Positions 14 through 23,386 of a stretch of 33,728 nt of DNA are shown one piece after another (position 1 is the first letter of the stretch; each line of letters opens with the position of its first letter). The notes under the pieces are model-generated. The model was not told the DNA's origin. It did not search any database and saw nothing but the letters and a program-made list of their open reading frames with translations. The position numbers and the translations under genes are program-made. The stretch lies in assembly GCA_004296785.1 (NCBI GenBank), contig SCVU01000203.1, positions 1-33,728 of the forward strand, given 5' to 3'. The DNA comes from Planctomycetota bacterium. Lineage in GTDB: Bacteria; Planctomycetota; UBA1135; GCA-002686595.

Positions 14-1538
14 GGCCGTTTGGTTGCTCGCGCCGCCCGACGCGCGCGCGTACTCGCTGATCGGCGGCTCGCTGTCGACGTCGCAGCGCGACGTGCGCGT
101 GTTCGACAACTTCAGCGATGCGGCGGCCAACGACAACACGACGCCGAGCCCGAGCTTCCCCGGCGCATTGGGCGCCGAGCTCGCGATCTGGAAGGCCGTC
201 GTCGAGTGGCAGAGCGAGCTGCACGGCGGCGGCTACGGCGATCCGACGCAGGTCGGCGGACTCGGCTCGGGCGGCGCGAACTTCGATCCGAGCTGGCAGG
301 GCAACGCCGCGTCCGTCGGCAGCCCGAACGACAACGTGCACTCGGAGGAGTCGGGGTCCGACAGCGGCGTGCTCGCCTACTGCGAGACGCCGATCAGCGA
401 CGGCTGGCGCATCCGCTACTACTCGGTCTGGACGTGGGCCGACGGCCCCGACGCGGGCTTCGGCGGCACCGATCTGCAGGGCATCGCGTGCCACGAGTAC
501 GGCCACGCGCTCGGCCTCGGCCACTCGAACGACCTCACCGGCGCGACGATGTTCCCGTCCATCGGCGGCAACGGCTCGCTGACGCGCTCGATCGAGCCCG
601 ACGACATCGCGGGGATCAAGGCGATCTACGGCGTGAAGAGCGCGTCCAAGCCGCGCATCGCATCGACGCAGGTCACGGGCGCGACGCTCGTGATCAACGG
701 CGCGAACTTCACGTCGACCGGCAACGAGGTGTGGTTCACGCGCGCCGGCGGCAACACGACCGGCGAGCCGGTCAAGGTCACCGGCCTCGCGTCGACCAAC
801 GGCGGCACGAAGCTCACGTTGACGATTCCGGCGACGGCGGGCGACGGCGACGTGCTAGTCAAGAAGAACGCGTCGGGCGGCTCGTCGCTGTCGAACGCGT
901 TCCCGTTCGACAGGGAAGGCGGGCCGCTGGTCGGCGGACCGCAGCTGTCGAGCGTGACGCCGTCGAGCGTCCCGGTGCTCGCGCTGCCAGCGAGCACGTT
1001 CCAGATCGGCGGGACCGGCCTGTCGAGCACGTCGAGCGTCACCGTCGGCGGCGTCGCCGCGAGCTTCACGAAGCAGGGCGACACCGGCCTGACGATCGAG
1101 GTGCCGCTGCTCGGCGCGCTCGGCGCGGTGAGCGTCGTCGTGACGAACCAGGAAGGTCCGGCGACGACGACGCTCGGCATCGTCGCGCCGACCGCGCCGG
1201 TGCTGTTGCTCGATCCGCCGCTGATGCTCAACGGGCAGACGCTGACCGCGACGCTGGGCGCGGGCGTCGGCGACATCGTCTACCTGTGCGCGTCGACGAC
1301 GTTCGCGCCGACGGTCGTGCCGGGCATCCTGTCGCTCGACATCGGCGGAGGCATCGGCGGCATCACGGTGCTGTCGACGAAGCTGATCCCCGCGAAGGGC
1401 TGGACGACGTTCACGTCGCCGACCCTCGGGATGCCGGCCGGCACGTCGGTCTACGGACAGCTCGCGGTGTTCTCGGCCGCCAACCCGGGGCTCCCGCTCG
1501 GCTCGAGCAACTTCCAGTCGACGCTGGTCGTGTTCTAG
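3..1538 (+). CDS. Matrixin-like (M10A-type metzincin) zinc protease, 5'-partial: catalytic domain + two IPT/TIG-like domains + shared C-terminal module
   Basis: The reading frame is open to the window edge; the listed ORF 24..1538 merely begins at a TTG. HEYGHALGLGHS (nt 492-527) is HExxHxxGxxH followed by the matrixin-diagnostic Ser. A Met-turn ATMFP lies a few residues downstream. Two ~85-aa Ig-like repeats follow (..VTGATLVINGANF.., ..FQIGGTGLSSTSSVTVGG..), then a 115-aa C-terminal module (nt 1191-1535). The signal peptide is missing because the N-terminus is cut by the contig end. Confidence 0.85.
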   Translation, partial: SSDLAVWLLAPPDARAYSLIGGSLSTSQRDVRVFDNFSDAAANDNTTPSPSFPGALGAELAIWKAVVEWQSELHGGGYGDPTQVGGLGSGGANFDPSWQGNAASVGSPNDNVHSEESGSDSGVLAYCETPISDGWRIRYYSVWTWADGPDAGFGGTDLQGIACHEYGHALGLGHSNDLTGATMFPSIGGNGSLTRSIEPDDIAGIKAIYGVKSASKPRIASTQVTGATLVINGANFTSTGNEVWFTRAGGNTTGEPVKVTGLASTNGGTKLTLTIPATAGDGDVLVKKNASGGSSLSNAFPFDREGGPLVGGPQLSSVTPSSVPVLALPASTFQIGGTGLSSTSSVTVGGVAASFTKQGDTGLTIEVPLLGALGAVSVVVTNQEGPATTTLGIVAPTAPVLLLDPPLMLNGQTLTATLGAGVGDIVYLCASTTFAPTVVPGILSLDIGGGIGGITVLSTKLIPAKGWTTFTSPTLGMPAGTSVYGQLAVFSAANPGLPLGSSNFQSTLVVF

Positions 1539-1539
1539 T

Positions 1540-1559
1540 CGCCGCGCTCGCCCGCGGCG
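1540..1559. terminator. GC-rich hairpin between convergent stop codons (possible bidirectional terminator)
   Basis: cgccgcg (1540-1546) pairs with cgcggcg (1553-1559), giving a 7-bp stem and 6-nt loop in the 28-nt gap between the stops at 1538 and 1567. There is no U-tract. Confidence 0.3.
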
Positions 1560-1566
1560 CAACAGC

Positions 1567-2256
1567 TCAGCGCCTGCCGAACAGCGGCAGCAGCGTGTCC
1601 TTCACGCGGCCGTACAACTGCGCGGTCGCGCGCACGTCGCGCAGACAGTACTCGCCGATCTCGTCGATGCGGCCCTCGCGGTACGCGCGCGAGACCTGGC
1701 TGCCGTCGAGGCCTCCCTTCGGGCTCTCGATGTCGAAGCGCCGGCACCAGTAGTCGAGCTTGTAGCTCTCGCGCACGCTGCCCTGGAAGTTGAACACCTC
1801 CATCAGGTCGACGTGCGTGCTCATGTCGTAGCGGTAGCCGCACAGGTTCATGCTCGGCGACAAGCCGTGCTGCGCCGAGCGGATCATCAGCATCGGGCCG
1901 TCGTAGCCACGGCCGTTGAACGTCACGACGCGCAGCCCGCCGCGGCCGACGATCTTCCAGAAGCGCTCGAGCAGCTCGGGCTCCGACCCGCGCATGACCT
2001 TCGAGTGCGGCACCTTCTCCCAGTCCTTCTCGGCCTCGCTCTCGCCCTCCAGCAGCAGCAGGCCGCGCTCGTCCTCGTACAGCCACATCCCGATCGCGAT
2101 GATCTTGCCGAGGCCCGGGAACAGCGCGGTCCGATCGGGCACCGACTTGCGGTCCGCCTCGTCGCGGGCGCGCGTCAGCAGGTAGCCGCGCGTGATCTCG
2201 TCGACCTCCTCCCAGTCGAAGCCGGCGACCTCGATGTCGAACACGATCGTCTTCAT
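1567..2256 (-). CDS. Stand-alone DEDDy 3'-5' exonuclease, PolB-exonuclease-like (RNase H fold)
   Basis: 229 aa. Exo I is VFDIEV, Exo II is TFNGRGYDGPML and Exo III is YCLRDVRAT, in the canonical order and spacing. GC3-rich coding pattern. Confidence 0.8.
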   Translation of the reverse strand: MKTIVFDIEVAGFDWEEVDEITRGYLLTRARDEADRKSVPDRTALFPGLGKIIAIGMWLYEDERGLLLLEGESEAEKDWEKVPHSKVMRGSEPELLERFWKIVGRGGLRVVTFNGRGYDGPMLMIRSAQHGLSPSMNLCGYRYDMSTHVDLMEVFNFQGSVRESYKLDYWCRRFDIESPKGGLDGSQVSRAYREGRIDEIGEYCLRDVRATAQLYGRVKDTLLPLFGRR

Positions 2257-2265
2257 GGCCCGCGT

Positions 2266-2602: not shown

Positions 2603-2612
2603 AACTCACCAT

Positions 2613-2814: not shown

Positions 2815-2850
2815 CGACCGCCTCGTCTCCTTTTCAGACAATCCGCGCAC

Positions 2851-7950: not shown

Positions 7951-9654
7951 TCAGGGCGCCAGCACGTGGATCACGCCGAGCTTCGAGAACAGGAAGCTGC
8001 TCGTCGGCACGTCGAACACGATCCACTGCAGCGGCATGTCGACCCCGTACAGCGTCGGGTCGTTCGCGAGCACCGCGGACTTCTTCGCGACGCCGCCGGT
8101 CGGGCCGACGCCCGTCGTGACCGCCGCCATTTGCACGAGCGCGTTCTGGTACAGGAAGCAGCCCGGCATGCCGACCGCGCCGAGATCGAACGGCAGCGGG
8201 AACCCGAACCAGCTCGTCGTGCTGCTGCCCATCGACAGGAACGCCGGCATCCCGCCGGGCACGCTCTCGACGCGCACCTCGATGCCGCCCGGGTGCGCGA
8301 CGTGCGTGTCGCCGACGAAGCCGAGGATCGGCTTCGCCGCGGTCGGCGCGCACGCGACGCCGCTGTCCTGGAAGTAATTCTGCAGCCAGCCGTTCGGCGC
8401 CGCGGCGATGTCCCACACCCACGGGTTGCCGATGAAGAACGGGCTCGGGCCCGCGAACGTCGCGTAGTCGAACGCCTTGAACGTCTGCTCGCCCGCGTCC
8501 GACGCATCGCCGTCGGAGTTCGTGTCGCGCAGCCGGTGCACGACCGCGTCGCCCTGGTCGATCGCGCCGACGTAGATGCCCTCGGGCGACGCGTCGAGGC
8601 CGGTGATCTGGTCGATCTGGAACGGCGCGCCGCTGGTCGTGCTGCCGTCGTAGTACAGGCGCACCTCGCCCGCGTCCTGCAGGTCTTCGTCGGAGTTCAG
8701 ATCGACGCCGCGATAGACGAGGCCGTTGACCGCCTGGCCGAGCGTGTTCAGCGCGTTGAAGCCGGCCGGCTGATTCGTCGCGAAGTACCACGCGGTGACG
8801 CCGCCCTCGTCGCGCGAGCACAGGTAGCACAGCTTGCCGTACACGAAGCCCTTGCCGCCCGGCGCGGGCAGCACGAGGCTGCGCAGCTGCCCGTTCGCCC
8901 AGTCGGCGTTCTGCGGCAGCGCGGGGCTCTTGCCGGCCGCGTTGAGGTACAGGCGCGACTCGCCCGGATCGGCGAGGTCGGCGTCGGAGTTGCGCCGCTC
9001 GAAGCGCATCAGCGCTTCGTCGTCGCCCTGCACGTACGCGATGACGACGTTGTTCGAACTCGCCAGGCGCAGCAGCGCCGCGCCGTCGAGCGGGACGGGG
9101 CCGAGATCGGTGCCGACGAAGTTCGCGCTCGCTCCGTCGATCATCTTCTCGCTCTCGCCGGCGTCGTTCGCGTCGCCGTCGCCGTTCAGGTCGATGCAGC
9201 GGAACAGTCCGAGCGCCTGGCCGGCGTCGGAGCACCACCACACCGCGGAGTCGGCCGTCGGCGCGAGCCCGTCGGGGCTCGTCTCGCCGTCGAACGTGCT
9301 GATCAAGCGGAAGCGCGACTCCTCGCCGAGGTCGATGCGGCCGTTGCCGCTGTCGTCGGTCGCGCGGAACAGGAGATCGCGCTGCGTGTCGATCCAGTAG
9401 AGCACCGGCTTGGGGCCCTCCATCCGCGCGAACACGCTGCGCGGGCTCGAGAAGTTCGCGCCGAGCATGTCGTCGTAGAACAGCGCGCGCACCTCGCCGC
9501 TCGACAGGTACTTCCCGTCGCCGTCGAGGTCGGTCAGGCGGACCAGCTGGTCCTGCGTCGTCTCCACGAGATAGACGTCGGATGCGGTCTGCCCGGAAGC
9601 GGGAAACGCCGCGCAGACTGCGAGCGCGGCGGCGAGGAGAGCGGGGCGAGACAT
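7951..9654 (-). CDS. Secreted six-repeat Ca-loop (DxDxDG..GE) propeller-like protein 1 with shared C-terminal module
   Basis: 567 aa from MSRPALLAAALAVCAAFPASGQ (signal peptide); an alternative ATG lies at 9693. Six spaced loops are present: DLDGDGKYLSSGE, DDSGNGRIDLGEE, DLNGDGDANDAGE, NSDADLADPGE, DLNSDEDLQDAGE, DTNSDGDASDAGE. The C-terminal 133 aa (nt 7954-8352) starts at a Cys and matches the module in its paralogue. Confidence 0.8.
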   Translation of the reverse strand: MSRPALLAAALAVCAAFPASGQTASDVYLVETTQDQLVRLTDLDGDGKYLSSGEVRALFYDDMLGANFSSPRSVFARMEGPKPVLYWIDTQRDLLFRATDDSGNGRIDLGEESRFRLISTFDGETSPDGLAPTADSAVWWCSDAGQALGLFRCIDLNGDGDANDAGESEKMIDGASANFVGTDLGPVPLDGAALLRLASSNNVVIAYVQGDDEALMRFERRNSDADLADPGESRLYLNAAGKSPALPQNADWANGQLRSLVLPAPGGKGFVYGKLCYLCSRDEGGVTAWYFATNQPAGFNALNTLGQAVNGLVYRGVDLNSDEDLQDAGEVRLYYDGSTTSGAPFQIDQITGLDASPEGIYVGAIDQGDAVVHRLRDTNSDGDASDAGEQTFKAFDYATFAGPSPFFIGNPWVWDIAAAPNGWLQNYFQDSGVACAPTAAKPILGFVGDTHVAHPGGIEVRVESVPGGMPAFLSMGSSTTSWFGFPLPFDLGAVGMPGCFLYQNALVQMAAVTTGVGPTGGVAKKSAVLANDPTLYGVDMPLQWIVFDVPTSSFLFSKLGVIHVLAP

Positions 9655-9716
9655 GGCGGCGAGTTCCGAGAGCGCGGTGCCGAACGCCTGCATCCTACCA
9701 GGGCCGCGAATGCGGA

Positions 9717-9722: not shown

Positions 9723-9755
9723 GCCGGGCCCGGGCATTTCAGGGCCTGCGAGCGG

Positions 9756-9833: not shown

Positions 9834-11555
9834 CTACTGGTACAGCGTCGCGACGCCCAGCGCGGACAGCCCGAGCTGCGCGAAGATCGGCTCGATCACG
9901 ACCCACTGGAACGGGACCGGCACGCCGTTCAGGCCCGGATCGGCCGGAATCGTCAGCGTCTTCGACAGCGTGCCCGAGGCGTTCATGAAGCCCTTCAGCG
10001 AGAACGCGAGGTCCTGGTACAGCGTGCAGCCCGACAGTCCGAGCACCGTGAGGTCGAGCGGCAGCGGAACGCCGGCCCACGTCGTCGTCGACGCGCCGAG
10101 GTACAGGATCGCCGGCAGACCGGGCAGCCCGTTCTCGACGCGCACCGCGAAGCCGGTCGTGCCGAGCTTCGGCGTGCCGCTCGCGCGGATCTGCGGCAGC
10201 GGGCCGAAGTACGAGCACGGCGTGCCGCTGATCGACCAGCCGAACTGGAACGCGCCCGCCGGAGCGACCGCGATGTCGTTGACGAACGGCGCGGCCGGAA
10301 TCGGCGCCGCGCCCTGGTAGTTGACCGAGTCCCACGCCGCCTGCACCTGCTCGCCGCCGTCGTTCGCATCGCCGTCGGCGTTGAGGTCCTGCAGGAAGTG
10401 CACGCGGTTCGCGCCGTTGTAGTCGCAGACGTACATGCCGTCCGCGCTGCCGTCGAGGCCGACGACCTTGCCGATCTCGAAGGCCGAGTACGACGTCGTG
10501 CTGCCGTCGTAGTAGAGGATCACTTCGCCGGCGTCGTTGATGTCGTTGTCGAGGTTCTGGTCGAGGCCGCGGAAGATCAGGCCGTTGATGCCCTGGCCGA
10601 GGAAGTTCTGCTTGAACTGGCTCGTGTTCGACGAATCGCAGGCGAGGTAGTAGACGCGCGTCGCGCCCTCGGTGCGCGTCGCGACGTGCGACAGACGGCC
10701 GTAGGTGTTGTTCGCCACCGACACGAGCAGGCTGCGCAGCGCGCCGCTCGCCCAGTCGGGATTCTGCGGCAGCAGCGCGTTCTTCGCGGTCGCGTTGAGG
10801 AACAGGCGCGCCTCGCCCGCGTCGAGCAGGTCGCCGTCGTTGTTGATGTCCTCGAAGCGGAACGCGGCCTCGTCGAGCCCGTCCTCGTACGCGATCACGC
10901 CGTTGCCGTCCTCGGCGAGGCGGCGCAGCGTCGCGCCGTCCATCGACTTCGGACCGGCGTCGGTCTCGACGGTGAAGCTGCCGGCCATGCCGTTGATCAG
11001 CTGCGCGGTCTCGCCCGCGTCCATCGCGTCGCCGTCGGCGTTCAGATCGCGGCAGCGGAACAGGCCCTTGTCGGTCTCGGTGATGTTCGCGACCGTGCCG
11101 CCCGACCACCACACCGCGCCGTCCGCGGCGACCGCGAGGCCGTCGCCGCCGAGCTTTCCTTCGAGCGTGCCGAAGTCGTAGAAGAGCGTGACCTCGCCGC
11201 CGGTGAACGAGCCGTCGCTGTTCGAGTCAGCGCCGCGCCAGATCGCACCGAGGCCGTTGCTCGGCGTGCCGGTCGTGACCTTCTGGTCGTACCAGTACGC
11301 GACGGGAACGCCCGCCTCGGTCGTGTACTCGGCGGTCGTGATCCAGTTGCCGAGGTTCTGGTAGACGGTGCCGAGCTCGTACTGCGAGGCCCAGAAGCCG
11401 TCGGAGTCGATGTCGCGCGCGACGAGGATCTGGTCCTGGTTCTGCGCGTCGTCGACGATCAGGAGATCGCGCTGCGGCACGACTTGCGCGAGCGCGGGGA
11501 GGCAGAGGAGGCACGGCGCCGCGACGAGGCGCAGCGAGAGTCGGGTGCGGATCAT
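9834..11555 (-). CDS. Secreted six-repeat Ca-loop propeller-like protein 2 (paralogue of 7951..9654) with shared C-terminal module
   Basis: 573 aa from MIRTRLSLRLVAAPCLLCLPALAQ. The listed ORF 9834..12734 is an in-frame upstream extension. The six loops are DIDSDG, DSNSDGSFTGGE, DLNADGDAMDAGE, DINNDGDLLDAGE, DQNLDNDINDAGE, DLNADGDANDGGE. It is collinear with propeller-1 throughout. The C-terminal 127 aa is nt 9837-10217. Confidence 0.85.
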   Translation of the reverse strand: MIRTRLSLRLVAAPCLLCLPALAQVVPQRDLLIVDDAQNQDQILVARDIDSDGFWASQYELGTVYQNLGNWITTAEYTTEAGVPVAYWYDQKVTTGTPSNGLGAIWRGADSNSDGSFTGGEVTLFYDFGTLEGKLGGDGLAVAADGAVWWSGGTVANITETDKGLFRCRDLNADGDAMDAGETAQLINGMAGSFTVETDAGPKSMDGATLRRLAEDGNGVIAYEDGLDEAAFRFEDINNDGDLLDAGEARLFLNATAKNALLPQNPDWASGALRSLLVSVANNTYGRLSHVATRTEGATRVYYLACDSSNTSQFKQNFLGQGINGLIFRGLDQNLDNDINDAGEVILYYDGSTTSYSAFEIGKVVGLDGSADGMYVCDYNGANRVHFLQDLNADGDANDGGEQVQAAWDSVNYQGAAPIPAAPFVNDIAVAPAGAFQFGWSISGTPCSYFGPLPQIRASGTPKLGTTGFAVRVENGLPGLPAILYLGASTTTWAGVPLPLDLTVLGLSGCTLYQDLAFSLKGFMNASGTLSKTLTIPADPGLNGVPVPFQWVVIEPIFAQLGLSALGVATLYQ

Positions 11556-11707: not shown

Positions 11708-14467
11708 CTATTGCAGCAGGCAGCTTGCGGCGGTGCTCGTGTCGAGCGCACCGCTCGCGCCGTCGAAGAACAGCGCCTCGAGCCACACCGTGACGCCGGC
11801 GAGGCCGGTGCCCGCGGGCACGGCGACCCCGAGCGTCGCGGTGCCGGCGGCCGACAGCGGCGCCTGCGCGACGCTGCGCAGATCGAGCAGGTTGCCGTTG
11901 CCGATCTCGAAGGTGACCAGCCCGGGGATCACGGTCGCGCCCGGCTGGCTGGCCGCGACGAGCCAGCTCCAGCCCGCGCCCGCGCTGCCGACCGGGACGA
12001 CGAGCGTCGCGCCCGTCGCGTGCGTCGGCGGCGACTGCTGCGCCGGCGGCGAGGTCGCACTGATCGCGAGCGCGGCGCTGCCGCTGCCCTGCGCGGTCGT
12101 CACGACGACGTCGACCGAGCCGAGCGCGAGCTGCTGCGGCAGCGCGAACGCGACCTGCCCCGCGCCCTGCGTGAACGCGACCGGCGCGCCGCCGACCGTC
12201 ACGCTCGTCGCGCCGCCCAAGCCGCTGCCGCTGGCGGCGATCGCCGCGCCGCCGATCGCCTGCGCGGTCGCGGGCGCGAGCGCGAAGACCGGCGGCCCCG
12301 GCGGCGGCGCCGCGTTCCAGCGCGTGACCGCGAACTGGTCGAGGTTCCAACCGCCGAAGTTCAGCGTCGCATTGGCCTTGATGCGGAACTCGAAGACGAC
12401 CGCGCTCTTGCCCGCGGCCTGCGCCGTCACGTCGAGGTCGAACGCGCGCCAACCGAAGTCGGTGAGCGGCGCGCCGGCGGGGTTGCGCCACACGAGCTGA
12501 TTGTCGCACCACAGCTCGGAGGAGTCCTTGACGCGATCGTCGACCGTCAGCCAGCGCGCGAACTCGACGTGCACGTTCGCCGCGCTCGCGCAGTTGATCG
12601 CGGGCGAGCGCAGCCACGTCCAGCCGTTCGCCGCGTACTCGCCGTTCGACGTGAGGTCGGTCCCCCACGCTTTCGCGCCCGCGAACGCCTGCGCCGGATC
12701 GCCGCCCTTGCCGGCCGGCGTGCCGCGCGCCCAATCATCGGTGCCCGAGTACGCGCCGTGCGTCCAGCCCTCGTCGGTCGCGGCCTCGAAGCCGTTCGCG
12801 TACAGCGTGGTCTTCGAGCCGGCGAAGAACTGCAGCACCTCGCCACCGAGCGCGGCGCCCGTCGGCAGATCCTCGGTGCCTCCGGCGGTGTCGGTCGCGC
12901 TGACGTAATAGCGCACGACGAGCGGCGAGCCCGCGCCGGGGATCAGCGCGGAATACGTCGAGCCGCTCGCGCTCATCGGCGCGCTCGACCACTGTGCGCC
13001 GCCGTCGAACGACCAGTGCAGCGTCGCGCTCGCGACGCTCGCCGCGGTCAGCGACGTGATCTGCGCCGAGACGAGGTACGGCCCGACGCCGTCGTTCACG
13101 TCGGCGAGCGGCGCGTGCGCGATCGCCAGGTCGAGCGGTTCGGCCAGCGCGGCAGCAGAGGCGGCGACGCCCTGCGCGATCAGCTTCGCGAGATCGAAGT
13201 CGGTGCACGCGAGCGCGACCGTGTCGTTGAGCGTGTGGATCGGCCCGTAGTAGTCGGGCAGGTCCTCCGAGAAGTACGCGGCCGGGATGCCCTGCGTGTT
13301 GTACGACGCGTGATCGGAGCTGCCGGCGTCGAGGATGTCCCACCACGAGGCCCAGCCCGGCACGTGCAGCGCGCTGATCGCGTCGCAGAAGCCGGTCAGC
13401 GAGGTCGACGAGCTGTTGGTCGTGAAGTCGCAGTCGACGATGTCGCCCGGCTTGCGGTACGCGACCATGTCCATGTTGAGCATGCCGAGCACTTGCTCGC
13501 CCGCGAGCTTGGCCTGCTGCGCGTTGTACGCCGAGCCGAGCAGCCCGAGCTCCTCGCCCGAGAAGAACACGCAGCGCACCGTGTGCTCGTACGCGCCGCC
13601 CAGCTTGAGCGCGCGCGCGATCTCGAGCAGCGCCGCGGTCCCCGACGCGTTGTCGTCGGCGCCGGGCGCGTTGAGGCTCGGGCCCGACTGGTTGATCGAG
13701 TCGTAGTGCGCGCCGGCGATCACGACCTTGTTCGGGAACAGCGTGCCCGGGATCTCGGCGATCACGTTGCGCGACATCGACGCGTTGAACGTCTGCAGGA
13801 TCGGCGCGTAGCCGTAGCTCTGCAGCTCGGCGACGAGCATGTTCTGCGCGGTCGTCGCGCCCGCCAGGTTCGCGCGGCGCGTGGGGATCGCGGCGAGCTG
13901 CGTCGTCCAGTTGACGATGCGCGCCTTGTCGATCGCCGCCGCGACGGCGCTGATGCGCGCATCGGGCTGTGTGAGCGACACCGCGATCTGGTCGGCGCGC
14001 GCGCCGCGCCACACCACCGGCGGCGCGGGCTCGATCGCGGCGGCCGCCGTCGTCGCGATGCGCAGCGGACCGCAGTGCGGCCGCCCGGCGGCATCCGACT
14101 CGCGCAGCTCGCACTCGCGCTCGCTCGTCGCCGCGACGAGCACGCGGCCGTCGAAGCGGAACACCTCGCGCGTGCCGGCGGGAGCGCTCCAGTCGGGCTC
14201 GTGCGCATCGAACGCGTACAGCTCCTCGCCGCGCGAAAGCGGCGGCAGCGGCACGAGCACCACGCCCTCGGCGAGCAGGCCCGCGCGCTGCTCGTCGTCG
14301 ACCGCGCCGACGCCGAACGTGCCGCCGTCCCACCACAGCTCGCAGCAGCGCGCGAGCGCCGCGTCGCTGCGCAGCAGACCTCCGTGCAGGATCGCGACGG
14401 GCTCGCGCGGCTGTTGCGCGGCCGCCGCGGAGACGACGCAGGATGCGAGAGCGAGCGAGCGAATCAT
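11708..14467 (-). CDS. Secreted multidomain M28-family zinc aminopeptidase 2 (N-terminal domain + M28 + Ig-like + jelly-roll/MAM-like + IPT/TIG + shared C-terminal module)
   Basis: 919 aa from MIRSLALASCVVSAAAAQQ. The listed ORF 11708..16909 is a spurious in-frame upstream extension. M28 metal and catalytic motifs are in order: GAHYDS, GADDNASG, FSGEELGLLGS, NMDMV, SSDHASY. These are followed by ..LYANGFEAATDEGWTHGAYSGTDDWARGTP.., then IPT/TIG (PPVFALAP..TSVTVGGAPV..), then a 105-aa tail (nt 11711-12025). Its ATG overlaps the stop of the upstream paralogue (ATGA, 14467-14464). Confidence 0.9.
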   Translation of the reverse strand: MIRSLALASCVVSAAAAQQPREPVAILHGGLLRSDAALARCCELWWDGGTFGVGAVDDEQRAGLLAEGVVLVPLPPLSRGEELYAFDAHEPDWSAPAGTREVFRFDGRVLVAATSERECELRESDAAGRPHCGPLRIATTAAAAIEPAPPVVWRGARADQIAVSLTQPDARISAVAAAIDKARIVNWTTQLAAIPTRRANLAGATTAQNMLVAELQSYGYAPILQTFNASMSRNVIAEIPGTLFPNKVVIAGAHYDSINQSGPSLNAPGADDNASGTAALLEIARALKLGGAYEHTVRCVFFSGEELGLLGSAYNAQQAKLAGEQVLGMLNMDMVAYRKPGDIVDCDFTTNSSSTSLTGFCDAISALHVPGWASWWDILDAGSSDHASYNTQGIPAAYFSEDLPDYYGPIHTLNDTVALACTDFDLAKLIAQGVAASAAALAEPLDLAIAHAPLADVNDGVGPYLVSAQITSLTAASVASATLHWSFDGGAQWSSAPMSASGSTYSALIPGAGSPLVVRYYVSATDTAGGTEDLPTGAALGGEVLQFFAGSKTTLYANGFEAATDEGWTHGAYSGTDDWARGTPAGKGGDPAQAFAGAKAWGTDLTSNGEYAANGWTWLRSPAINCASAANVHVEFARWLTVDDRVKDSSELWCDNQLVWRNPAGAPLTDFGWRAFDLDVTAQAAGKSAVVFEFRIKANATLNFGGWNLDQFAVTRWNAAPPPGPPVFALAPATAQAIGGAAIAASGSGLGGATSVTVGGAPVAFTQGAGQVAFALPQQLALGSVDVVVTTAQGSGSAALAISATSPPAQQSPPTHATGATLVVPVGSAGAGWSWLVAASQPGATVIPGLVTFEIGNGNLLDLRSVAQAPLSAAGTATLGVAVPAGTGLAGVTVWLEALFFDGASGALDTSTAASCLLQ

Positions 14468-17292
14468 TGCAGTTGCACCGAGGCGGCGTTGGTCGAGTCG
14501 AGCGTCGACGTCGAAGGATCGAAGAGCAGCGCCTCGAGCCACGCCGTCTGTCCGGCCAGTCCCGTCCCGCTCGGCACCGGCAGCGCGAACGTCCACGTGC
14601 CCGCGGCGCTGAGCGCGTGCTGCGACAGCGCGTACAAGTCGAGCAGGTTGCCGTTGCCGATCTCGAGCGACACGAGGCCGGGGATCGAGGTCGCGCCGCT
14701 GTGCGACGAGAACAACAGCCACGCGAATCCGTTCGGCTGCGCGCCGACCGGCAGCGACAGCACCTGTCCGGTCGCGTGCGTCGCGGGAGCGACGAGCGCC
14801 GGCGGAACCGTCTGCACGATCGACAGCGGCTGCGCGTTCGTGCCGGCCGCGGTCGCGACCTGCACGAGCACGTTGCCGAGCGCGAGCTGCTGCGGCAGCG
14901 CGAACGAGACCTGGCCGGCGCCCTGCGCGAACGCGACCGGCGCGCCGCCGACCGTCACGCTCGTCACGCCGCCCATGCCGGTCCCGCTCGCGACGATCGA
15001 CTGGCCGCCGATCGCCGCCGCGCTCGACGGTGCGAGCGCGAACACGGGCGGTCCCGGCGGCGGCGCCGCATCCCAGCGCTCCAAGCGCAGCTCGTCGAGC
15101 GTCCACCCGCCCATCTGCAGGCCGCCGTCGCTCTTCAGGCGGAACTCGACGCGCGTGCTCGCGACGCCCGCCGCCTGCGCGCTGACGTCGAGGTGGATCG
15201 ACTGCCACGCGCTGTCGTTCGTGTGATTCGAGCCGCCCGCGCTGCTCGGATTCGTCCACACCTTCGCGTTGTTGACCCAGATCTCCGCCTGGTCGAACAG
15301 CGCGTCCTCGACGTTCAGCCAGCGCCGCAGCGACAGGTGCACGTTGCTCGCGCTCGCGCAGTTGACGACCGGCGAGCGCAGCCAGTTGTGCGCGTTGGCC
15401 GGGTACTCGCCGTTGAAGTTGTTCGCGCCGAGGTCGTTCGCCCAGACCTTCGTGCCCGCGAACGCGCTGCTCGGGTCGCCGGCCTTCCCGACCGGCGTGC
15501 CGCGCTGCCAGTCGTCGGTGCCGCTGAGCGCGCCGTGCGTCCAGCCGTCGTCGGTGCCGGCCTCGAAGCCGTTCGCGTAGAGCTGGGTCTTCGAGCCGAC
15601 GAAGAACGAGTGGTACGCCGCGCCGAGGTCGGCGCCGCTCGGCGCGACCTCGGTGTTGCCGGCGCTGTCCTGCGCCTCGATCCAGTAGCGGATCGTCTTC
15701 GGCGAACCGGCGGAGGGAACGAGCGCGCTCCAGCTCGCGCCGGCCCCGCTCATCGCGACGCCCGACCAGCTCTGGCCGTCGTCGCTCGAGTGCCACAGCG
15801 TCGCGCCCGCGACCGTGGCCGCGGTCTGGCTCGTGATCGACGCGCTCGCGAGGTACGGACCGACGCCGTCGTTCGTGTCGGGAAGCGGCGTGTGCGCGAT
15901 CTGCAGGTCGACGGGCTCGGCCATCGTCGCGGCCGTCGCGAGCACGCCGCGGCCGATCATCTGCGCGAGGTCCCAGTCGGTCGTCGACAGCGCGTTCGTG
16001 TCGCTCGCCGTGTGGATCTGCGCGTAGAAGTCGACGAGGTCCTCGAAGAAGAACGCCGACGGGAAGCCCTCGGCGTTGTACGCCGCGTGATCGGAGCTGC
16101 CGGCGGTCAGCACGCCGTACTGGCTCGCCCAACCCGCGACGTACAGCGCGCTCGTCGCGTCGGCGAATGCGGTCAGCGTCGCGGACGTGCTGTTCGTCGC
16201 GAAGTCGCAGTCGCGCACGTCGCCCGCCTTGCGGTACGCGACCATGTCCATGTTGAGCATGCCGAGCACCTGCTCGCCCGAGGACTTCGACAGCGCCGCG
16301 GCCGCCGCCGAGCCGACCAGGCCGAACTCCTCGGCGGAGAACCAGATGAAGCGCAGCGTGTGCTCGTACGGCCCGCCGCTCTTCAGCACGCGCGCGACCT
16401 CGAGCAGCGCCGCGCTGCCGGACGCGTTGTCGTCGGCGCCGGGCGCCGCGAGCGCGCTGCCGCCGAGGTTGATCGAGTCGTAGTGCGCGCCGAGCACGAC
16501 GACCTTCGACGGGTCGACGCTGCCCGGGATCTCGGCGACGACGTTCTTCGAGTAGCTCGCCGAGAACGTGTGCAGCGTCGGCGCGAAGCCGAAGCCCGTC
16601 AGCCAGCCCGCGATCTGGTTCTGCGCGGTCGTCGCGCCCGGCTGGTCGGCGCGGCGCGTGAAGTTCGACGCGAGCGCGACGTCCTTCGCCTGCATGTTCG
16701 CCTTGTCGAGCTGCGCGACGAGCGCGCTGATGCGCGGATCGGCTCCCGCGACGAGCTGCACGCCCTCGGCGCCGCGCAGCCCGCGCCAGCGGAACTCGGG
16801 CACCGGCGGCAGTGCGCGGCGCTCGATGCGCAGCGGGCCGCAGTGCGCGCCCTTCGACAGCGCGGCGAGCGCGTCGGCACCGCCCTGCTCGCGCGCGGCG
16901 TTCGGCCACGCGATCAACGCGCGCTCGCCCTGCGTGAGCAGCACGCGCGCGCCGGTCGGCAGCTCGAGCGCGCCGTCGGCGTGCACGAGGTACAGCTCGT
17001 CCTCCGCGCGCGGCGCGTCGAACCCGACGACCTCGGCGCCGCGCGCGCGCAGCGCGGCGATCTCAGCGGCGCTGGCCGCGCCGAGCGCGAAGCCGCCGGC
17101 GTCCGCCCAGGTCTCGCACAGCCGCGGCAGGCTCGCGCACAGCGCTGCGTCGTCGCCGTAGACGATCGCGACCGGCCGCCGCTCGAGCGCGGATTCCGCC
17201 GCGACGGCGGGGTTTTCCAGCGGGCCTTCCTGCGTCGGAGCGGGGTGCGGAACGGAGACGGAGACGCCGGCGAGCAGGACCGGGAGCAGCAT
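14464..17292 (-). CDS. Secreted multidomain M28-family zinc aminopeptidase 1 (same architecture as 11708..14467)
   Basis: 942 aa with signal peptide MLLPVLLAGVSVSV. Motifs GAHYDS, GADDNASG, FSAEEFGLVGS, NMDMV, SSDHAAY. It is collinear with its paralogue over its full length. The 105-aa C-terminal tail is nt 14467-14781. Confidence 0.9.
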   Translation of the reverse strand: MLLPVLLAGVSVSVPHPAPTQEGPLENPAVAAESALERRPVAIVYGDDAALCASLPRLCETWADAGGFALGAASAAEIAALRARGAEVVGFDAPRAEDELYLVHADGALELPTGARVLLTQGERALIAWPNAAREQGGADALAALSKGAHCGPLRIERRALPPVPEFRWRGLRGAEGVQLVAGADPRISALVAQLDKANMQAKDVALASNFTRRADQPGATTAQNQIAGWLTGFGFAPTLHTFSASYSKNVVAEIPGSVDPSKVVVLGAHYDSINLGGSALAAPGADDNASGSAALLEVARVLKSGGPYEHTLRFIWFSAEEFGLVGSAAAAALSKSSGEQVLGMLNMDMVAYRKAGDVRDCDFATNSTSATLTAFADATSALYVAGWASQYGVLTAGSSDHAAYNAEGFPSAFFFEDLVDFYAQIHTASDTNALSTTDWDLAQMIGRGVLATAATMAEPVDLQIAHTPLPDTNDGVGPYLASASITSQTAATVAGATLWHSSDDGQSWSGVAMSGAGASWSALVPSAGSPKTIRYWIEAQDSAGNTEVAPSGADLGAAYHSFFVGSKTQLYANGFEAGTDDGWTHGALSGTDDWQRGTPVGKAGDPSSAFAGTKVWANDLGANNFNGEYPANAHNWLRSPVVNCASASNVHLSLRRWLNVEDALFDQAEIWVNNAKVWTNPSSAGGSNHTNDSAWQSIHLDVSAQAAGVASTRVEFRLKSDGGLQMGGWTLDELRLERWDAAPPPGPPVFALAPSSAAAIGGQSIVASGTGMGGVTSVTVGGAPVAFAQGAGQVSFALPQQLALGNVLVQVATAAGTNAQPLSIVQTVPPALVAPATHATGQVLSLPVGAQPNGFAWLLFSSHSGATSIPGLVSLEIGNGNLLDLYALSQHALSAAGTWTFALPVPSGTGLAGQTAWLEALLFDPSTSTLDSTNAASVQLQ

Positions 17293-17490: not shown

Positions 17491-18327
17491 ATGAGTCCAC
17501 AGCCGCTCGATCTGTCGAACGTTCAGATCCCGACCCTGCCCGAGGTCGTGACGAAGCTCTCGGCGATGGTCGAGAATCCGCTCGTCGGCATCGCGGAGAT
17601 CGGCCGCACCGTGCGCGAGGACGCCGCGATGACGACGCGGCTGTTGCGCGTCGCCAACAGCGCCACGGTCGGGCTGAGCGAGCCGGTGCTGTCGGTCGAG
17701 CAGGCGACCGCGACGCTCGGCGCGCGCGCGGTGCGCAACCTCGCGCTGCAGGCCGCGGTGATCGACCTGTTCGAGGACCTGCCGAGCACCGACGAGCTCG
17801 ACATCCAGCTCGTGTGGCGCCACGCGATCCTGACCGCGCAGGTCGCGCAGCTGCTCGCGACGGAGCTCAAGGCGGGCCTGCCGCTCGCGCCCGACGAGTA
17901 CTACTCGTGCGGCCTCGTGCACGACATCGGCAAGCTCGTGCTGCTGCAGGCGCTCGGCGAGGAGTACCTCGCGGTGATGCACGACGCGCGGCGCAACGGC
18001 AAGGCGACGCACGTCGCGGAACAGGAAGAGCTCGGCTACACGCACGTCGACGTCGGAGCGCGCGTCGCCGCGTACTGGCGGCTGCCGCCGGTGCTGATCG
18101 AAGCGCTGCAGTTCCACCACGGCCCGCTCGAGCGCATCCGCGCCGACAAGAGCATCGCCGTGGTCGCGTTCGCGGACCAGATCGCGTACCGCGTGCAGGC
18201 GGGGGCGGCCGACGCATGCGTCGCGACGCTGCGTCCGGAGGCGGGACGGGTGCTCGGAATCGCGCCGCAGGCGTTCGAGCGGATCGTCGCGCAGGCCGCC
18301 GAGCTGTGGCCGACGATCCAGCCGTAG
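17491..18327 (+). CDS. HDOD domain protein (HD-related output domain, signalling)
   Basis: 278 aa. IPTLPEVVTKLSAMVENP.., ..MTTRLLRVANSA.., ..SVEQATATLGARAVRNL.. and ..CGLVHDIGKLVL.. match the HDOD pattern. Confidence 0.85.
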   Translation: MSPQPLDLSNVQIPTLPEVVTKLSAMVENPLVGIAEIGRTVREDAAMTTRLLRVANSATVGLSEPVLSVEQATATLGARAVRNLALQAAVIDLFEDLPSTDELDIQLVWRHAILTAQVAQLLATELKAGLPLAPDEYYSCGLVHDIGKLVLLQALGEEYLAVMHDARRNGKATHVAEQEELGYTHVDVGARVAAYWRLPPVLIEALQFHHGPLERIRADKSIAVVAFADQIAYRVQAGAADACVATLRPEAGRVLGIAPQAFERIVAQAAELWPTIQP

Positions 18328-18844: not shown

Positions 18845-21118
18845 ATGCATCCGCTTCGCGATCTCTCGCTTCCCCTCGCCCTCTCCGTCGTCTGCGCGCT
18901 CCCGAGCGCGGGGCAGCTCGGCTCGCCGGCAGCGGCGTCCACCCCCGCCGCGCTGTCCGCGTCCGTGTGGCGCTCGGCGCACGGCGTCGCCGCGGTCGAC
19001 GGCAAGTTGTGGGCGAACGGCCCCGACTACCGCGTCGAGCTCGACGCGCGCGGCATCGAGTACGCGGCCGCGTTCGGCGAGCGCGCGCCGACCACGCAGA
19101 CCGCGCGCTTCGACCTCGTCGGATTCGGCCGCGCCGGCGGACCGCTCGTCGCGGGCGCACCGGACGTGCCCGATCTGTCGAGCGGCAGCGCCGTCTACGA
19201 GCGCGGCGCGGGCGTGCAGGAGATCTACGCGACGCGCCGCGACGGCATCGAACAGAGCTTCGTGTTCGCACAGCCGCTCGCGGGCGACGGCGATCTCGTC
19301 GTGCGCATCGCGGTCACGAGCTCGCTCGCGCGCGCCGGCGCCGCCGACGGGCTCGCGCTCGAAGCGCCCGGCCTCGGGGCGATCGCGATCGGCGCCGTGA
19401 CCGGGATCGACGCGCGCGGAGAGCGCGTCGCCGGCTCGCTGCGCTGGGTCGGCGACGAGCTCGAGCTCGCGCTGCCGGCGGCGTTCGTCGATGCGGCCGC
19501 GTACCCGCTGGTGCTCGATCCGCTGATCGGCACCGAGTTCGAGGTCGATTCGGATGCGGCCAACTCGTTCGACGACGTCGCCCCCGCGATCGCGCACGAC
19601 TGGAGCGCGGGCAACTACCTGATCGTGTGGGCGCGCGTGTTCGGGCTCGGCGACTCCGACATCCGCGGCCAGCGCGTCGCGGACAACGGCGCGCTGGTCG
19701 GCGGCCTGCTCGCGATCGAGGTCGGCGGGACGGTCTCGCCGTCGGCGCAGTCGCCGACTGTCGGCAACGTGAACCTGACCAACATGTACCTCGTCGCGTG
19801 GGAGAGCTCGTCCGGCTTCCTCGCGCAGTCGGACATCGTGTGCCGCAGCGTGAATCCGGCCACGGGCGCGCTCTCGGCGAACACGCTGACGGTCGGCGCG
19901 TCGGCGACGTACGACATCGACCCCGCGATCGGCGGTGAAGTGCAACTGTCCGACGACGACGCGATCGTCGTCTGGGCGGAGTTCGATGCCGGGATCCGCG
20001 CGCGGCAGGTCAGCGTGCCCGCGGGCGGCAACCCGGTGCTGGTCGGGCTCGAGCTCGACGTCAGCGACACGGTCGGGTTCTCGTACGACGACTTCGAACC
20101 GGCGATCTCGAAGGGCACCGGCTACGGCGGCAACTTCCTGATCGCCTGGGAGCGCCACTTCGCCGGAGCGACGACGCCGTACTACGACCTGCGCTATGCG
20201 GTGATCGACCGCAACGCGAACCTGCTCGTCACGACGAAGTCCGTGACGGTGAGTTCGGGCACGGACGAGCGCAACGTCGCGGTCGCCGGCGACGGCGTCA
20301 AGTTCGCGATCGTCTACGACCAGGAGCCGGTCGGCGGCGGCAACGTCGGCATCTACGGCAACCGCGTCACGTACATCAGCGGCGCGAGCGCGCCGATCTC
20401 GAGCCAAATCACGATCGTCGATTCGCCGTTCGCCGAGTCCGACCCGGACGTCTCCAACACCGGCGACACGATCACGCTCGCGTACGTCGGCACGAACATC
20501 CTCTCGTCGAACTCTCCGATCGTCGTGCAGGCGCTCGACCAGGTCGACCTGCAGCCGTGCGGCGGCTCGGCCGGCTTCTCCGACAGCGCGCTCGACTACG
20601 CGTCGCCGGTGATCTCCAGCGCCGCCGAGAGCATCTTCAACGCCGACGGCGGCACGCTCGTCGCGTTCTACGCTGAGGACACGAGCACCAGCCCGGGCGA
20701 GATCTGGGCGCAGCGCTACGACCCGGTGGTCGGGCTCAACGTCGAGATCATCGGCTGCGGCGGCGGGCGCACCGAGGTCGGCTGCGCGCTCGCGAGCGAG
20801 AGCGAGGCGAAGATCCACGTGACCGAGGGCATCGTCGGCGCGCCGGCGTGGCTGATCCTGTCCGCGCAGCCGCTCGATATGCCGATCGGCCCGTGCGTGC
20901 TGTGGGCCGATCCGTTCAGCGGCTGGATCCAATCGGCCGGCGTCGTGAACTCACTCGGCGAGGTCCACACGACGCTCGCGCTCGCGCCGTCGCCGGGCCT
21001 GGTCGGCGTGCAGTTCCACGCGCAGCACGTGAGCCAGGCCGCCGGCGGCCCGGTGACCTTCACCAGCGGCGGTCCCGCCTACCACATCTCTACGGCCGTG
21101 CTCGCAACCTTCGAATAA
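18845..21118 (+). CDS. Secreted repeat protein S1: N-terminal beta-sandwich-like module (..YPLVLDP) + ~50-aa repeats + shared C-terminal module
   Basis: 757 aa from ATG 18845, with GGAG 6 nt upstream; the listed GTG at 18839 is an alternative start. Signal peptide MHPLRDLSLPLALSVVCALPSAGQ. The N-terminal module ..AVYERGAGVQEIYATRRDGIEQSF..GDGDLVV..VTGIDARGERV..LELALPAAFVDAAAYPLVLDP is shared with the next gene. Repeats have the form P.ia....yLivW.....sDI.g.rv. The tail is nt 20753-21115. Confidence 0.85.
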   Translation: MHPLRDLSLPLALSVVCALPSAGQLGSPAAASTPAALSASVWRSAHGVAAVDGKLWANGPDYRVELDARGIEYAAAFGERAPTTQTARFDLVGFGRAGGPLVAGAPDVPDLSSGSAVYERGAGVQEIYATRRDGIEQSFVFAQPLAGDGDLVVRIAVTSSLARAGAADGLALEAPGLGAIAIGAVTGIDARGERVAGSLRWVGDELELALPAAFVDAAAYPLVLDPLIGTEFEVDSDAANSFDDVAPAIAHDWSAGNYLIVWARVFGLGDSDIRGQRVADNGALVGGLLAIEVGGTVSPSAQSPTVGNVNLTNMYLVAWESSSGFLAQSDIVCRSVNPATGALSANTLTVGASATYDIDPAIGGEVQLSDDDAIVVWAEFDAGIRARQVSVPAGGNPVLVGLELDVSDTVGFSYDDFEPAISKGTGYGGNFLIAWERHFAGATTPYYDLRYAVIDRNANLLVTTKSVTVSSGTDERNVAVAGDGVKFAIVYDQEPVGGGNVGIYGNRVTYISGASAPISSQITIVDSPFAESDPDVSNTGDTITLAYVGTNILSSNSPIVVQALDQVDLQPCGGSAGFSDSALDYASPVISSAAESIFNADGGTLVAFYAEDTSTSPGEIWAQRYDPVVGLNVEIIGCGGGRTEVGCALASESEAKIHVTEGIVGAPAWLILSAQPLDMPIGPCVLWADPFSGWIQSAGVVNSLGEVHTTLALAPSPGLVGVQFHAQHVSQAAGGPVTFTSGGPAYHISTAVLATFE

Positions 21119-21142
21119 CCAGGCCCCAAGCCCTCCGCTCCC

Positions 21143-23386
21143 ATGAAGTACGCACCCTCCGTCATCGCCGCGGCGTTCGTCGCGATCGCCGTCGCTTCCC
21201 CTTCCCACGCCGGCGACAAGGTCGTCGGTGGTCCGGTGCGCTCGATCCCACGCGCGAGCGTCGGCCTCGAGCCGCGCGGCGACCATCTGCACGGCGGCGG
21301 CGCCGACTACAAGGCGCGCTTCGACGCGCAGGGCTTCACGTTCGTGCCGGCGCTCGGCCGCGCGGTCGAGCACGAGCAGTCGCTGCACTTCGCGCTGCGC
21401 TCGGCCGGCCGCGAGCACGGGCCGGCGCTCGCGCTCGATCTCGCCGCGGCACCTTCGGTCGACGGAATCTCCGCGGTGTACGAACGCGCGGCACTGGTCG
21501 AGCGCTACGCGCTGTCGAGCGCGGGTGTCGAACAGAGCTTCGAGATCGCAGCCCCTCCCGCGGGCGACGGCGATCTCGTCGTGCGCGGCGCGTTCGCCTC
21601 GACGCTGCCGCGGACTGAAGCGGTGGCCGGCCTCCGCTTCGCGACGCACGAGCACGGCGGCGTGTCGATCGGCGCGGTGACCGGCATCGACGCGCTCGGC
21701 CGCAGCGTGCAGGGATCGCTCGCGCTCGCCGACGGCGAGCTCGAGCTGCGCCTGCCCGATGCGTTCGTCGATCAGGCCGCGTGGCCGGTGCTCGTCGACC
21801 CGCTCTTCGGCACCGTCTTCGGCGTGTCGGCCGGCGCGAACGACGACTCGAGCCCCGACGTGGCCAACGAGGCCAGCAACAACACGTACGTCGTGACGTG
21901 GCAGCGCGACTTCTCGTCCGCGAGCTCGGAGATCCGCGCGCAGCGCGTGCAGACCGACGGCAATCTGGCCGGCGGCACGATCTTCGTCAGCTCGGGCGGC
22001 TACAACGCGCACCCGTCGATCGCGGGCAACACGCTGACCAACGCGATGCTGATCGCGTGGCAGACCGCGGGCAACGTGTTCGGGCCGTACAACGTCGTGT
22101 GCCGCAACGTCGACACGAACACCGGCATCCTCTCGGCCGCGACGCTGCCGCTCGCCAGCGATCCGGGCAACGAGATCGATCCCGTCGTCGGCGGCGAGGC
22201 GATCAAGCTGATCGCGCTCGACAAGCAGGAGGTGCTCGTCGTGTGGGCCGCCGAGAGCTTCGGGATCAAGGGCGCGCAGGTGCGCATCCCCGCGGGTGCC
22301 GGCGATCCGAGCGTCGTCTCGACCTTCACGGTCGCGACCGACACGCCCACCGAATACAACCTGCGCCCCGCGATCACCAAGCACGGCGCCGACGAGGGCG
22401 TGCACCTCGTGGTCTGGCAGCGCCGGCCCGATCTGCTGATCGGCCCGTCGGACCTGCACGCGCAGATGGTCAGTCGCTACGGCGTGCTGATCGGCCCGCC
22501 GGCGGTCGTCGCCGACACGGCGTTCGACGAGCGCGACGCGGCGGTCGACTCGATGCCCGACGGCGCGGCCTTCGTGATCGCGTACGAGCGCGAGGAGGCG
22601 GACCTGCTCGGGCACGACGTCTACGCGCGCTCGTTGATCCCGTCGAACGGCGTGCTCACGAGCGGCGCGGGGCCGGTGGCGATCGACGCGGACGACGACG
22701 ACGAGGAATCCGATCCGGCGGTGATCTGCCCGGGCGCGAAGGCGTGGATCGCGTACTGCGACCAGACGACGTTCGCGAACTCGACGATCCGCGTCGAGGC
22801 GTTCGATCCGAAGAAGCTCGTGCAGTGCGAGGACGTCGTGTTCGCGCAGCCGACGGGCATCGCGCAGAAGCCGGCGCTCGCGTACGTGTACGCGGCCTAC
22901 CTCGGCGGCGTGCAGTCGCTGCTGACGTGGAGCGTGCTCGACGAGGCGCCGCCGTTCCCCGGCGACATCCACGCGCAGCTGCTGCTGACGCACGCCGGCA
23001 CCGGCACGACGCAGGACCTCGGCGGCGGCTGCGGCGGCGGCGGCACGCTGTCGAACACGTTCACGCCGGACATCGGCTCGGGCCTGTTCCTGCTCTCGTG
23101 CACCGGCATCGACCCGGGCGCGTTCAAGGCGATCCTGAACTTCAATCTGCCGACGCCGCCGCTGTCGTGCGGGAGCTGCGCGTGGGTGCCGTTCTTCCTG
23201 CCGATCGGTCAGACGATCCAGGTGCCGGGCTCGGCCGCGTTCCTCACGCCGATCCCGTGCGACCCGGCGCTCATCGGCGGGCAGCTCGACGCGCAGTTCA
23301 CGAGCTTCCTGACCAGCGGCAGCCCGTGCTCGCTGTTCCCGAACGTGTCGCTGTCGAACCGACTGCGGCTGACCTTCGGCCAGTAG
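21143..23386 (+). CDS. Secreted repeat protein S2 (paralogue of S1)
   Basis: 747 aa with signal peptide MKYAPSVIAAAFVAIAVASPSHA. Same N-terminal module (..AVYERAALVERYALSSAGVEQSF..GDGDLVV..VTGIDALGRSV..LELRLPDAFVDQAAWPVLVDP) and repeat region. The 119-aa Cys-rich tail is nt 23027-23383. It starts 24 nt after the S1 stop. Confidence 0.85.
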   Translation: MKYAPSVIAAAFVAIAVASPSHAGDKVVGGPVRSIPRASVGLEPRGDHLHGGGADYKARFDAQGFTFVPALGRAVEHEQSLHFALRSAGREHGPALALDLAAAPSVDGISAVYERAALVERYALSSAGVEQSFEIAAPPAGDGDLVVRGAFASTLPRTEAVAGLRFATHEHGGVSIGAVTGIDALGRSVQGSLALADGELELRLPDAFVDQAAWPVLVDPLFGTVFGVSAGANDDSSPDVANEASNNTYVVTWQRDFSSASSEIRAQRVQTDGNLAGGTIFVSSGGYNAHPSIAGNTLTNAMLIAWQTAGNVFGPYNVVCRNVDTNTGILSAATLPLASDPGNEIDPVVGGEAIKLIALDKQEVLVVWAAESFGIKGAQVRIPAGAGDPSVVSTFTVATDTPTEYNLRPAITKHGADEGVHLVVWQRRPDLLIGPSDLHAQMVSRYGVLIGPPAVVADTAFDERDAAVDSMPDGAAFVIAYEREEADLLGHDVYARSLIPSNGVLTSGAGPVAIDADDDDEESDPAVICPGAKAWIAYCDQTTFANSTIRVEAFDPKKLVQCEDVVFAQPTGIAQKPALAYVYAAYLGGVQSLLTWSVLDEAPPFPGDIHAQLLLTHAGTGTTQDLGGGCGGGGTLSNTFTPDIGSGLFLLSCTGIDPGAFKAILNFNLPTPPLSCGSCAWVPFFLPIGQTIQVPGSAAFLTPIPCDPALIGGQLDAQFTSFLTSGSPCSLFPNVSLSNRLRLTFGQ

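Follow-up and report, generated by a model that had tools for sequence, protein, structure and literature searches.

The window analysed here, meaning the whole stretch of 33,728 nucleotides of contig SCVU01000203.1 from a Planctomycetota bacterium (assembly GCA_004296785.1), has a GC content of 71%. Within 23 kb it holds seven copies of one kind of tail module, each at the end of a different gene product: an M10 peptidase (matrixin-1), two propeller proteins (propeller-1 and propeller-2, here prop1 and prop2), two M28 peptidases (M28-1 and M28-2) and two proteins without a Pfam domain (S1 and S2). The module is 105-133 residues long, and all seven proteins stop 0-3 residues past its last strand. 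This was the observation of a first-pass annotation made from the letters alone, and its tail coordinates proved right on reading of the open reading frames (ORFs) together with a GC3 frame plot, from which the gene order was also derived. The ORF ends of the seven genes (Table 1) agree with that plot. Obvious N-terminal signal peptides are present in six of the seven proteins, the seventh, matrixin-1, being truncated by the window. The tails finish in ...LYQ, ...LAP, ...LLQ, ...LQ, ...TFE, ...FGQ and ...VVF, and none has a basic cluster there.

Considered within the window alone, the evidence that tails of different families are related is weak. BLASTP among the tails links only prop1 with prop2, M28-1 with M28-2, and the M28 tails with matrixin-1; the match between the S1 and S2 tails is not significant, and hhalign across families gives P=0.013 for prop against M28 and P=0.008 for prop against S. 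These weak comparisons would suit a chance pattern in the Ala/Gly/Pro/Leu-rich proteins of a 71% GC genome, with the seven tails not forming one family. For a canonical profile, 145 independent modules were taken from the databases and the window proteins and M28-type sequences excluded; the profile used to retrieve these modules had contained all seven window tails, so a mild selection bias is possible. The canonical profile recovers six of the seven tails, all in register at the extreme C-terminus. The two propeller tails match over nearly the whole profile (prop1: 110.9 bits, positions 7-136 of the hidden Markov model (HMM), residues 439-572 of 580; prop2: 133.6 bits), S1 (17.5 bits) and S2 (22.4 bits) match partly, and the M28 tails match in the C-terminal half only (M28-1: 21.6 bits, HMM 86-141, residues 888-941; M28-2: 18.5 bits, HMM 85-133, residues 864-912). 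Even the lower scores, 17.5-22.4 bits, lie above the top score of 10.9 bits among about 2,350 composition-matched decoys, which comprised shuffled and reversed tails as well as natural cargo segments of equal composition.

Comparison of alignments points the same way. Against the canonical alignment, hhalign gives 94% over 76 columns for S1, 95% for S2 over 115 columns that take in the GxGC start, and 92% for the M28-type alignment, in its last 48 columns only. Reciprocally, the M28-type HMM matches canonical modules of unrelated proteins in register, and it covers two genomic ORFs over almost its full length. Matrixin-1 misses the canonical profile (-1.3 bits), which, like the possible retrieval bias noted above, speaks for chance, and it reaches only 26% with hhalign against the canonical alignment. 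However, it scores 33.1 bits with an M28-type HMM built without it, against a best of 8.8 bits for 1,000 shuffles, and hhalign with the M28-type alignment gives 96% over 101 columns. With the predicted strand pattern also agreeing in the C-terminal half (see below), we regard a chance resemblance as extremely improbable. The cross-family homology that had been proposed from pattern by eye is thus confirmed by an independent profile, by decoys, by hhalign and by the M28-type link.

By these comparisons the seven tails make up one superfamily with three subtypes. The canonical subtype, represented by prop1 and prop2, is marked by a conserved Cys pair and the motifs GxGC...LPLDLxxxGxPGC...IPxDPxLxG...Q. 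Both Cys are found in 243 of 247 canonical modules (hmmalign column count), as would suit a structural disulfide in a domain that folds outside the cytoplasm. In the divergent subtype (S1 and S2) both Cys are kept. M28-1, M28-2 and matrixin-1 form a Cys-less subtype, for which profile comparison makes homology to the canonical type demonstrable in the C-terminal half only, and the matrixin-1 tail joins the superfamily only via the M28-type subfamily.

Table 1. Tail modules and annotated genes of the window, in nucleotide positions of the whole stretch
Feature	Position	Strand	Description
matrixin-1 tail	1191..1535	+	Cys-less, M28-type subtype
prop1 tail	7954..8352	-	canonical module with Cys pair
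prop2 tail	9837..10217	-	canonical module; sequence used for structure model
M28-2 tail	11711..12025	-	Cys-less subtype
M28-1 tail	14467..14781	-	Cys-less subtype
S1 tail	20753..21115	+	divergent module, both Cys kept
S2 tail	23027..23383	+	divergent module, both Cys kept
matrixin-1	3-1538	+	M10 peptidase and IPT/TIG; 5' end cut by window
exonuclease-like gene	1567-2256	-	
ETR1_N/PAS/GGDEF/EAL protein	2942-4975	+	
matrixin-2	4906-7146	-	M10 peptidase and 3 TIG
small exported protein	7146-7772	-	208 aa
propeller-1 (prop1)	7951-9693	-	580 aa, signal peptide
propeller-2 (prop2)	9834-11555	-	573 aa, signal peptide
M28-2 (M28_2)	11708-14467	-	919 aa: M28 peptidase, TIG
M28-1 (M28_1)	14464-17292	-	942 aa: M28 peptidase, weak choice-of-anchor J-like region, TIG
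HDOD protein	17491-18327	+	
S1	18845-21118	+	757 aa, signal peptide, without Pfam domain
S2	21143-23386	+	747 aa, signal peptide; S1 paralogue

The family extends far beyond this locus. An exhaustive HMMER search with the seven-tail alignment against 1.84 billion cluster representatives returned 1,354 clusters at 50% identity (E<=1e-3). The best 150 matches comprise 147 that are nearest the propeller tails and three of the M28/matrixin kind. Word-indexed protein searches were unproductive, close relatives in this lineage being sparsely sampled: the prop2 tail alone found no matches, the seven-tail alignment found only P0001, a protein 73% identical to the matrixin-1 tail, and an alignment of 55 sequences found P0152 and P0001. 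Exact-sequence look-ups of two window proteins found no record of either. One high-ranking candidate of the exhaustive search, the third (P0004, 2,030 aa), was rejected as a repeat artefact, since a piece of the profile of about 40 residues, around IPxDxxxxG, matches each of its 11 tandem repeats. This false positive is a warning for future HMMs of the family.

Genomes were scanned with the back-translated motif W.G..LP[LF]DL...G.[PSAT]GC against GTDB species representatives. This strict motif catches 31% of known modules, and it found at least 118 stretches from at least 65 assemblies, all of them metagenome-assembled genomes (MAGs). Among the matches listed, to which all counts of genomic stretches and ORFs given here refer, the 118 stretches are all labelled Planctomycetota or unclassified, their median GC is 70%, and a single assembly has up to eight strict-motif matches, so that genomes of one lineage carry the module several times. 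The MAG names suggest wastewater, lake and groundwater as sources, among them for the assemblies of L007/L036 and L026/L027. All four matches named with an organism are Planctomycetota. The names that the sources give to matches cover the cargo only ("CHRD domain-containing", "S8 family serine peptidase", "VCBS repeat-containing", "hypothetical").

One Planctomycetota MAG contig (L010, VGZE01000021.1) keeps the order matrixin-2, small exported protein, prop1, prop2 and M28-2 at 65-82% protein identity. Further MAGs (L012, L021, L026, L027, L060 and L106) have parts of the window order, namely matrixin-2 with the small protein and a propeller, HDOD, or PFK, at 30-60% identity. Between the window and the L010 orthologues the tails are full-length and 56-74% identical (56% for prop1, 73% for M28-2), with protein bodies at 69-84%. 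We count such full-length conservation in orthologues as selection on the tails.

Placement of the module in this wider material is close to what the window had suggested. In 139 of 151 representatives no more than 15 residues separate the end of its envelope from the C-terminus (median 3), and in 122 of 135 genomic ORFs the same is true of the distance to the stop (median 1). Two modules occur in none of these 135 ORFs, and none was seen between other domains, either in the ORFs or in the representatives examined; about eight representatives have 30-40 extra residues after the module. Altogether, about 92-99% of the modules are C-terminal, with a single copy in each protein. The claim of a strictly C-terminal module therefore holds for the great majority of homologues, which are terminal rather than internal, and fails for three proteins with an N-terminal copy, to which we return below.

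The cargo was expected to be exported and unrelated, and so it is. Among 101 full-length hits, 31 Pfam families were matched (E<=1e-3). FG-GAP/VCBS propellers account for 39 of the 101 and Kelch for about nine; the others include LamG, beta-lactamase-like, NosD/beta-helix, CHRD, S8 subtilase, M10 matrixin and M28 proteins. A hydrophobic, signal-like N-terminus was found by a hydropathy heuristic in 73 of 89 full-length-looking hits, the remainder resembling truncated gene calls. In some hits NCBIfam places choice-of-anchor B, Q and Z-repeat domains upstream of the module; the choice-of-anchor families are defined by differing C-terminal anchors in different lineages.

The presence of peptidases in three of the seven window proteins and in some of the database hits (M10, M28, S8) brings to mind a C-terminal pro-domain or intramolecular chaperone, which would aid folding or latency and later be removed. 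The pre-peptidase C-terminal (PPC) domain (PF04151), a beta-rich C-terminal domain of secreted peptidases, offers a likeness of this kind. However, most tail-module cargo is not peptidase and consists of non-enzymatic propellers, stand-alone copies of the module exist, and PF04151 is absent from all Pfam scans of the window proteins, homologues and module-only sequences. A pro-domain role is, in our judgement, very unlikely.

At first reading the tails were proposed to be uncharacterised, and comparison with described families places them outside known domains. No Pfam or NCBIfam model covers any tail of the seven window proteins at E<=0.1, 55 sequences restricted to the module have no consistent likeness to Pfam or NCBIfam models even with the cut-off relaxed to E<=5, and no description of the module was found in Pfam-A (2025 copy), NCBIfam 20.0, PDB or the full-text literature. 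By this comparison the family is so far unnamed and missing from Pfam, NCBIfam and PDB.

Structure prediction suggests an independently folding domain. AlphaFold2 with the 55-sequence alignment models the prop2 tail (127 aa) as all-beta with eight strands of at least three residues (pLDDT 95.4, pTM 0.87), and the M28-1 tail, modelled with six sequences, is also all-beta at lower confidence (pLDDT 69.9). The C-terminal half of the M28-1 model shows the same long-short-short strand pattern as the prop2 model. The module is thus confidently predicted to be an Ig-like beta-sandwich, about 110-130 residues long, that forms an autonomous domain. A sequence-profile search of PDB gave no match, and Foldseek searches of PDB with both models gave nothing at E<=1e-3.

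The top Foldseek matches are generic Ig-like sandwiches (transglutaminase, complement MG, Ig; TM ~0.5, E>=2e-3), and the conserved positions of the module are mostly Gly, Pro and alternating hydrophobics, as is typical of fold determinants. Both observations would suit an ordinary Ig-like domain for ligand binding or spacing, glycan binding for instance, that came last by domain-shuffling history and has no targeting role. Such domains are commonly internal or in tandem, whereas this module is neither duplicated nor placed between domains in the material described above, and its cargo has no common substrate. We consider this explanation unlikely.

The first-pass annotation compared the module with cargo tags such as the C-terminal domain (CTD) of secretion systems of type IX (T9SS) or the PEP-CTERM-class signals. 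The T9SS CTD is an outer-membrane export signal that is removed by the PorU sortase (PMC4804311, PMC12618676, PMC11285876), and it is a compact seven-strand sandwich of 3+4 strands (PMC11285876). Like the predicted fold of the tail module, it is an Ig-like beta-sandwich at the extreme C-terminus of Sec-exported proteins, and in both cases each protein has a single copy, the cargo is highly varied (peptidases, adhesin-like propellers), a genome has many copies, and the copies belong to one lineage. The module resembles T9SS CTDs in placement (extreme C-terminus, one copy, signal-peptide cargo), the three N-terminal copies excepted. In contrast to the seven-strand CTD, the module has about 110-130 residues, eight predicted strands and, in the canonical subtype, a Cys pair. 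Neither the seven proteins nor 101 homologues nor the 55 module-only sequences match the T9SS sorting-domain models of type A (TIGR04183, PF18962) and type B (TIGR04131), and the T9SS CTD is absent from the Foldseek top 50. The hosts also differ, being Planctomycetota for the module, whereas T9SS is described for Bacteroidota. No SprA/Sov, PorK/L/M/N, PorV or PorU was seen in the window; beyond it, the reading covered 8-kb stretches of MAGs.

The second comparator fits less well. Tripartite CTERM signals have about 25-35 residues and consist of a short motif, a transmembrane helix and a basic cluster (PMC11980579). PEP-CTERM, MYXO-CTERM, GlyGly-CTERM and JDVT-CTERM share with the module a C-terminal position, diverse exported cargo, multiple copies and restriction to lineages, and choice-of-anchor cargo families occur upstream in both cases. 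Unlike these signals, the module has 105-133 residues, is predicted to be all-beta and lacks a terminal basic cluster, and no CTERM model of NCBIfam matches the tail modules. A Kyte-Doolittle test for transmembrane helices did not discriminate, as even the transmembrane-like tail of matrixin-2 (see below) scores 1.51, and it was not used as evidence. Of the proposed class of tags, the hallmarks hold in independent data, while a match to T9SS or CTERM models is missing and the PEP-CTERM architecture has to be abandoned for these tails.

A tail closer to that architecture is found in matrixin-2, the paralogue of matrixin-1. Its last 75 codons or so encode a stretch rich in Gly that contains one Cys, then a hydrophobic segment resembling a helix, and finally a cluster of basic residues. 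The same ending, ..GG[AS]C.., a transmembrane segment and RSRR/KRR, is shared by homologues from three further MAGs (L027, L060, L106). NCBIfam CTERM models do not recognise this tail (JDVT-CTERM E=2.3, MYXO-CTERM E=7.2), which may belong to the invariant-Cys class of sorting signals as a member so far undescribed. Comparison of the two matrixin endings indicates that the C-terminal slot is filled by two kinds of tail in one lineage. The slot of these matrixin peptidases therefore reads as interchangeable, and the beta-sandwich tail and the tripartite tail as distinct. Beside matrixin-2 lies the small exported protein of 208 aa, which matches no family.

Several further features of the locus deserve mention. 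An ATGA-type overlap (14464-14467) joins the stop codon of M28-1 to the start codon of M28-2, and the two proteins are 58% identical over their last 150 residues; on both grounds they are a pair that arose by tandem duplication, with co-transcription probable. S1 and S2, also in tandem, are paralogues with 36.5% identity over body residues ~40-570, neither of which matches a Pfam or NCBIfam family, and a repeat region in the giant P0004 resembles the S1 body (26% over 296 aa, E=1e-6). The gene following the exonuclease-like one encodes a c-di-GMP turnover protein whose N-terminal membrane domain is like that of ethylene receptors (PF25487 ETR1_N, E=3.8e-32) and is followed by PAS, GGDEF and EAL. 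Downstream of S2 lie cupredoxin-like, phosphofructokinase-like and 3-keto-disaccharide-hydrolase-like genes, together with an operon-like series on the minus strand (24415-30703) for a Rieske protein, a cytochrome b divided between two genes, and a multihaem cytochrome c of 1,210 aa. The latter has an additional helix-turn-helix Pfam match at residues 1016-1050.

How should the tail module be understood? It is terminal, never in tandem or internal, attached to unrelated exported cargo, present in multiple copies and found in one lineage, and we take this combination as the signature of a targeting tag rather than of a general binding or spacer domain. Our preferred reading, which we hold tentatively and at somewhat less than an even chance, is that the module is a lineage-specific C-terminal tag, similar to the T9SS CTD, that directs export or attachment of Sec-exported proteins in uncultured, mostly high-GC Planctomycetota. 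In such a scheme the N-terminal signal peptide would carry the cargo across the inner membrane. Cargo and tail would then fold in the periplasm, the canonical tail being locked by its conserved disulfide. A dedicated partner would recognise the folded terminal domain and would move the protein across the outer membrane, or fix it to that membrane or the cell surface, by analogy with the CTD in type IX secretion. For all functional steps after Sec export, as for the existence of a partner and for any cleavage of the tail, we argue by inference.

Several observations weigh against a targeting tag. Three proteins (P0064, P0097 and L053, the last encoded by the ORF at 4604-6521 on the minus strand) carry the module N-terminally, straight after the signal peptide and followed by 420-660 residues. 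These architectures are real and not fusions made by gene calling, because each begins with its own signal peptide. At least two proteins (P0019 and P0021) consist of a signal peptide and the module alone, and the last residues of the module are not conserved. Detectable similarity of the Cys-less subtype is confined to the C-terminal half, so that features used for recognition may differ between subtypes. Restriction to one phylum is apparent, as judged from the 118 stretches and the four named proteins, and an ordering of the collection by taxon, should there be one, could mislead here; no cultured member of the lineage is among the module matches. In agreement with what the first-pass annotation had reported, no secretion, sortase or processing component was recognised in the window, and ORF clustering found no recurrent neighbour gene, the largest neighbour family being present in seven of 118 loci. 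Scattered cargo is the rule for T9SS and PEP-CTERM systems, and we therefore treat the missing neighbour as neutral evidence.

The N-terminal and stand-alone modules fit a docking or anchoring domain equally well or better. By this explanation, which follows the logic of dockerin, the folded module would bind a surface receptor or envelope polymer non-covalently after general export, would have no role in translocation and would stay uncleaved. Dockerins are single-copy modules, usually C-terminal on diverse secreted enzymes and occasionally elsewhere, that act by partner binding. The tail module, single-copy, mostly terminal and on diverse secreted cargo, has the dockerin pattern too, and its autonomous, confidently predicted fold and its variable terminal residues are in line with docking. 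On the other hand, dockerin is a duplicated calcium-binding helical module of about 70 aa, unlike the beta-sandwich tail, and no cohesin-like partner is known for the latter. Pfam scans of the module sequences and the homologues found no dockerin, no SLH and no other module known as an anchor, and no protein with repeated receptor modules was noticed in the window or loci, where no systematic search for one was made. C-terminal placement in up to 99% of cases is also stricter than expected if both termini served equally. Docking is the close rival of our preferred reading, though we judge it somewhat less probable.

The targeting-tag reading can be extended. The module might be the cargo signal of an undescribed pathway for outer-membrane export and surface attachment in this uncultured, mostly high-GC Planctomycetota clade, and that pathway might be a functional analogue of type IX secretion, of independent origin outside Bacteroidota and with its own machinery for recognition and processing. 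We put this joint proposal forward as conceivable but doubtful.

To our knowledge, the delivery of folded proteins to the surface is poorly understood in Planctomycetota. In this regard, the module profile provides a sequence-defined handle on a large number of proteins that are presumably secreted or at the surface. They make up at least 1,354 clusters at 50% identity, a genome having several to many copies, and belong to lineages for which MAGs are the only source. The profile can be used at once for phylogenetic profiling in search of partner machinery, for annotating "hypothetical" tails, and for cleavage searches in metaproteomes. Even if the module were only an anchor or binding domain, it would constitute a large, well-folding domain family that is missing from Pfam and NCBIfam.

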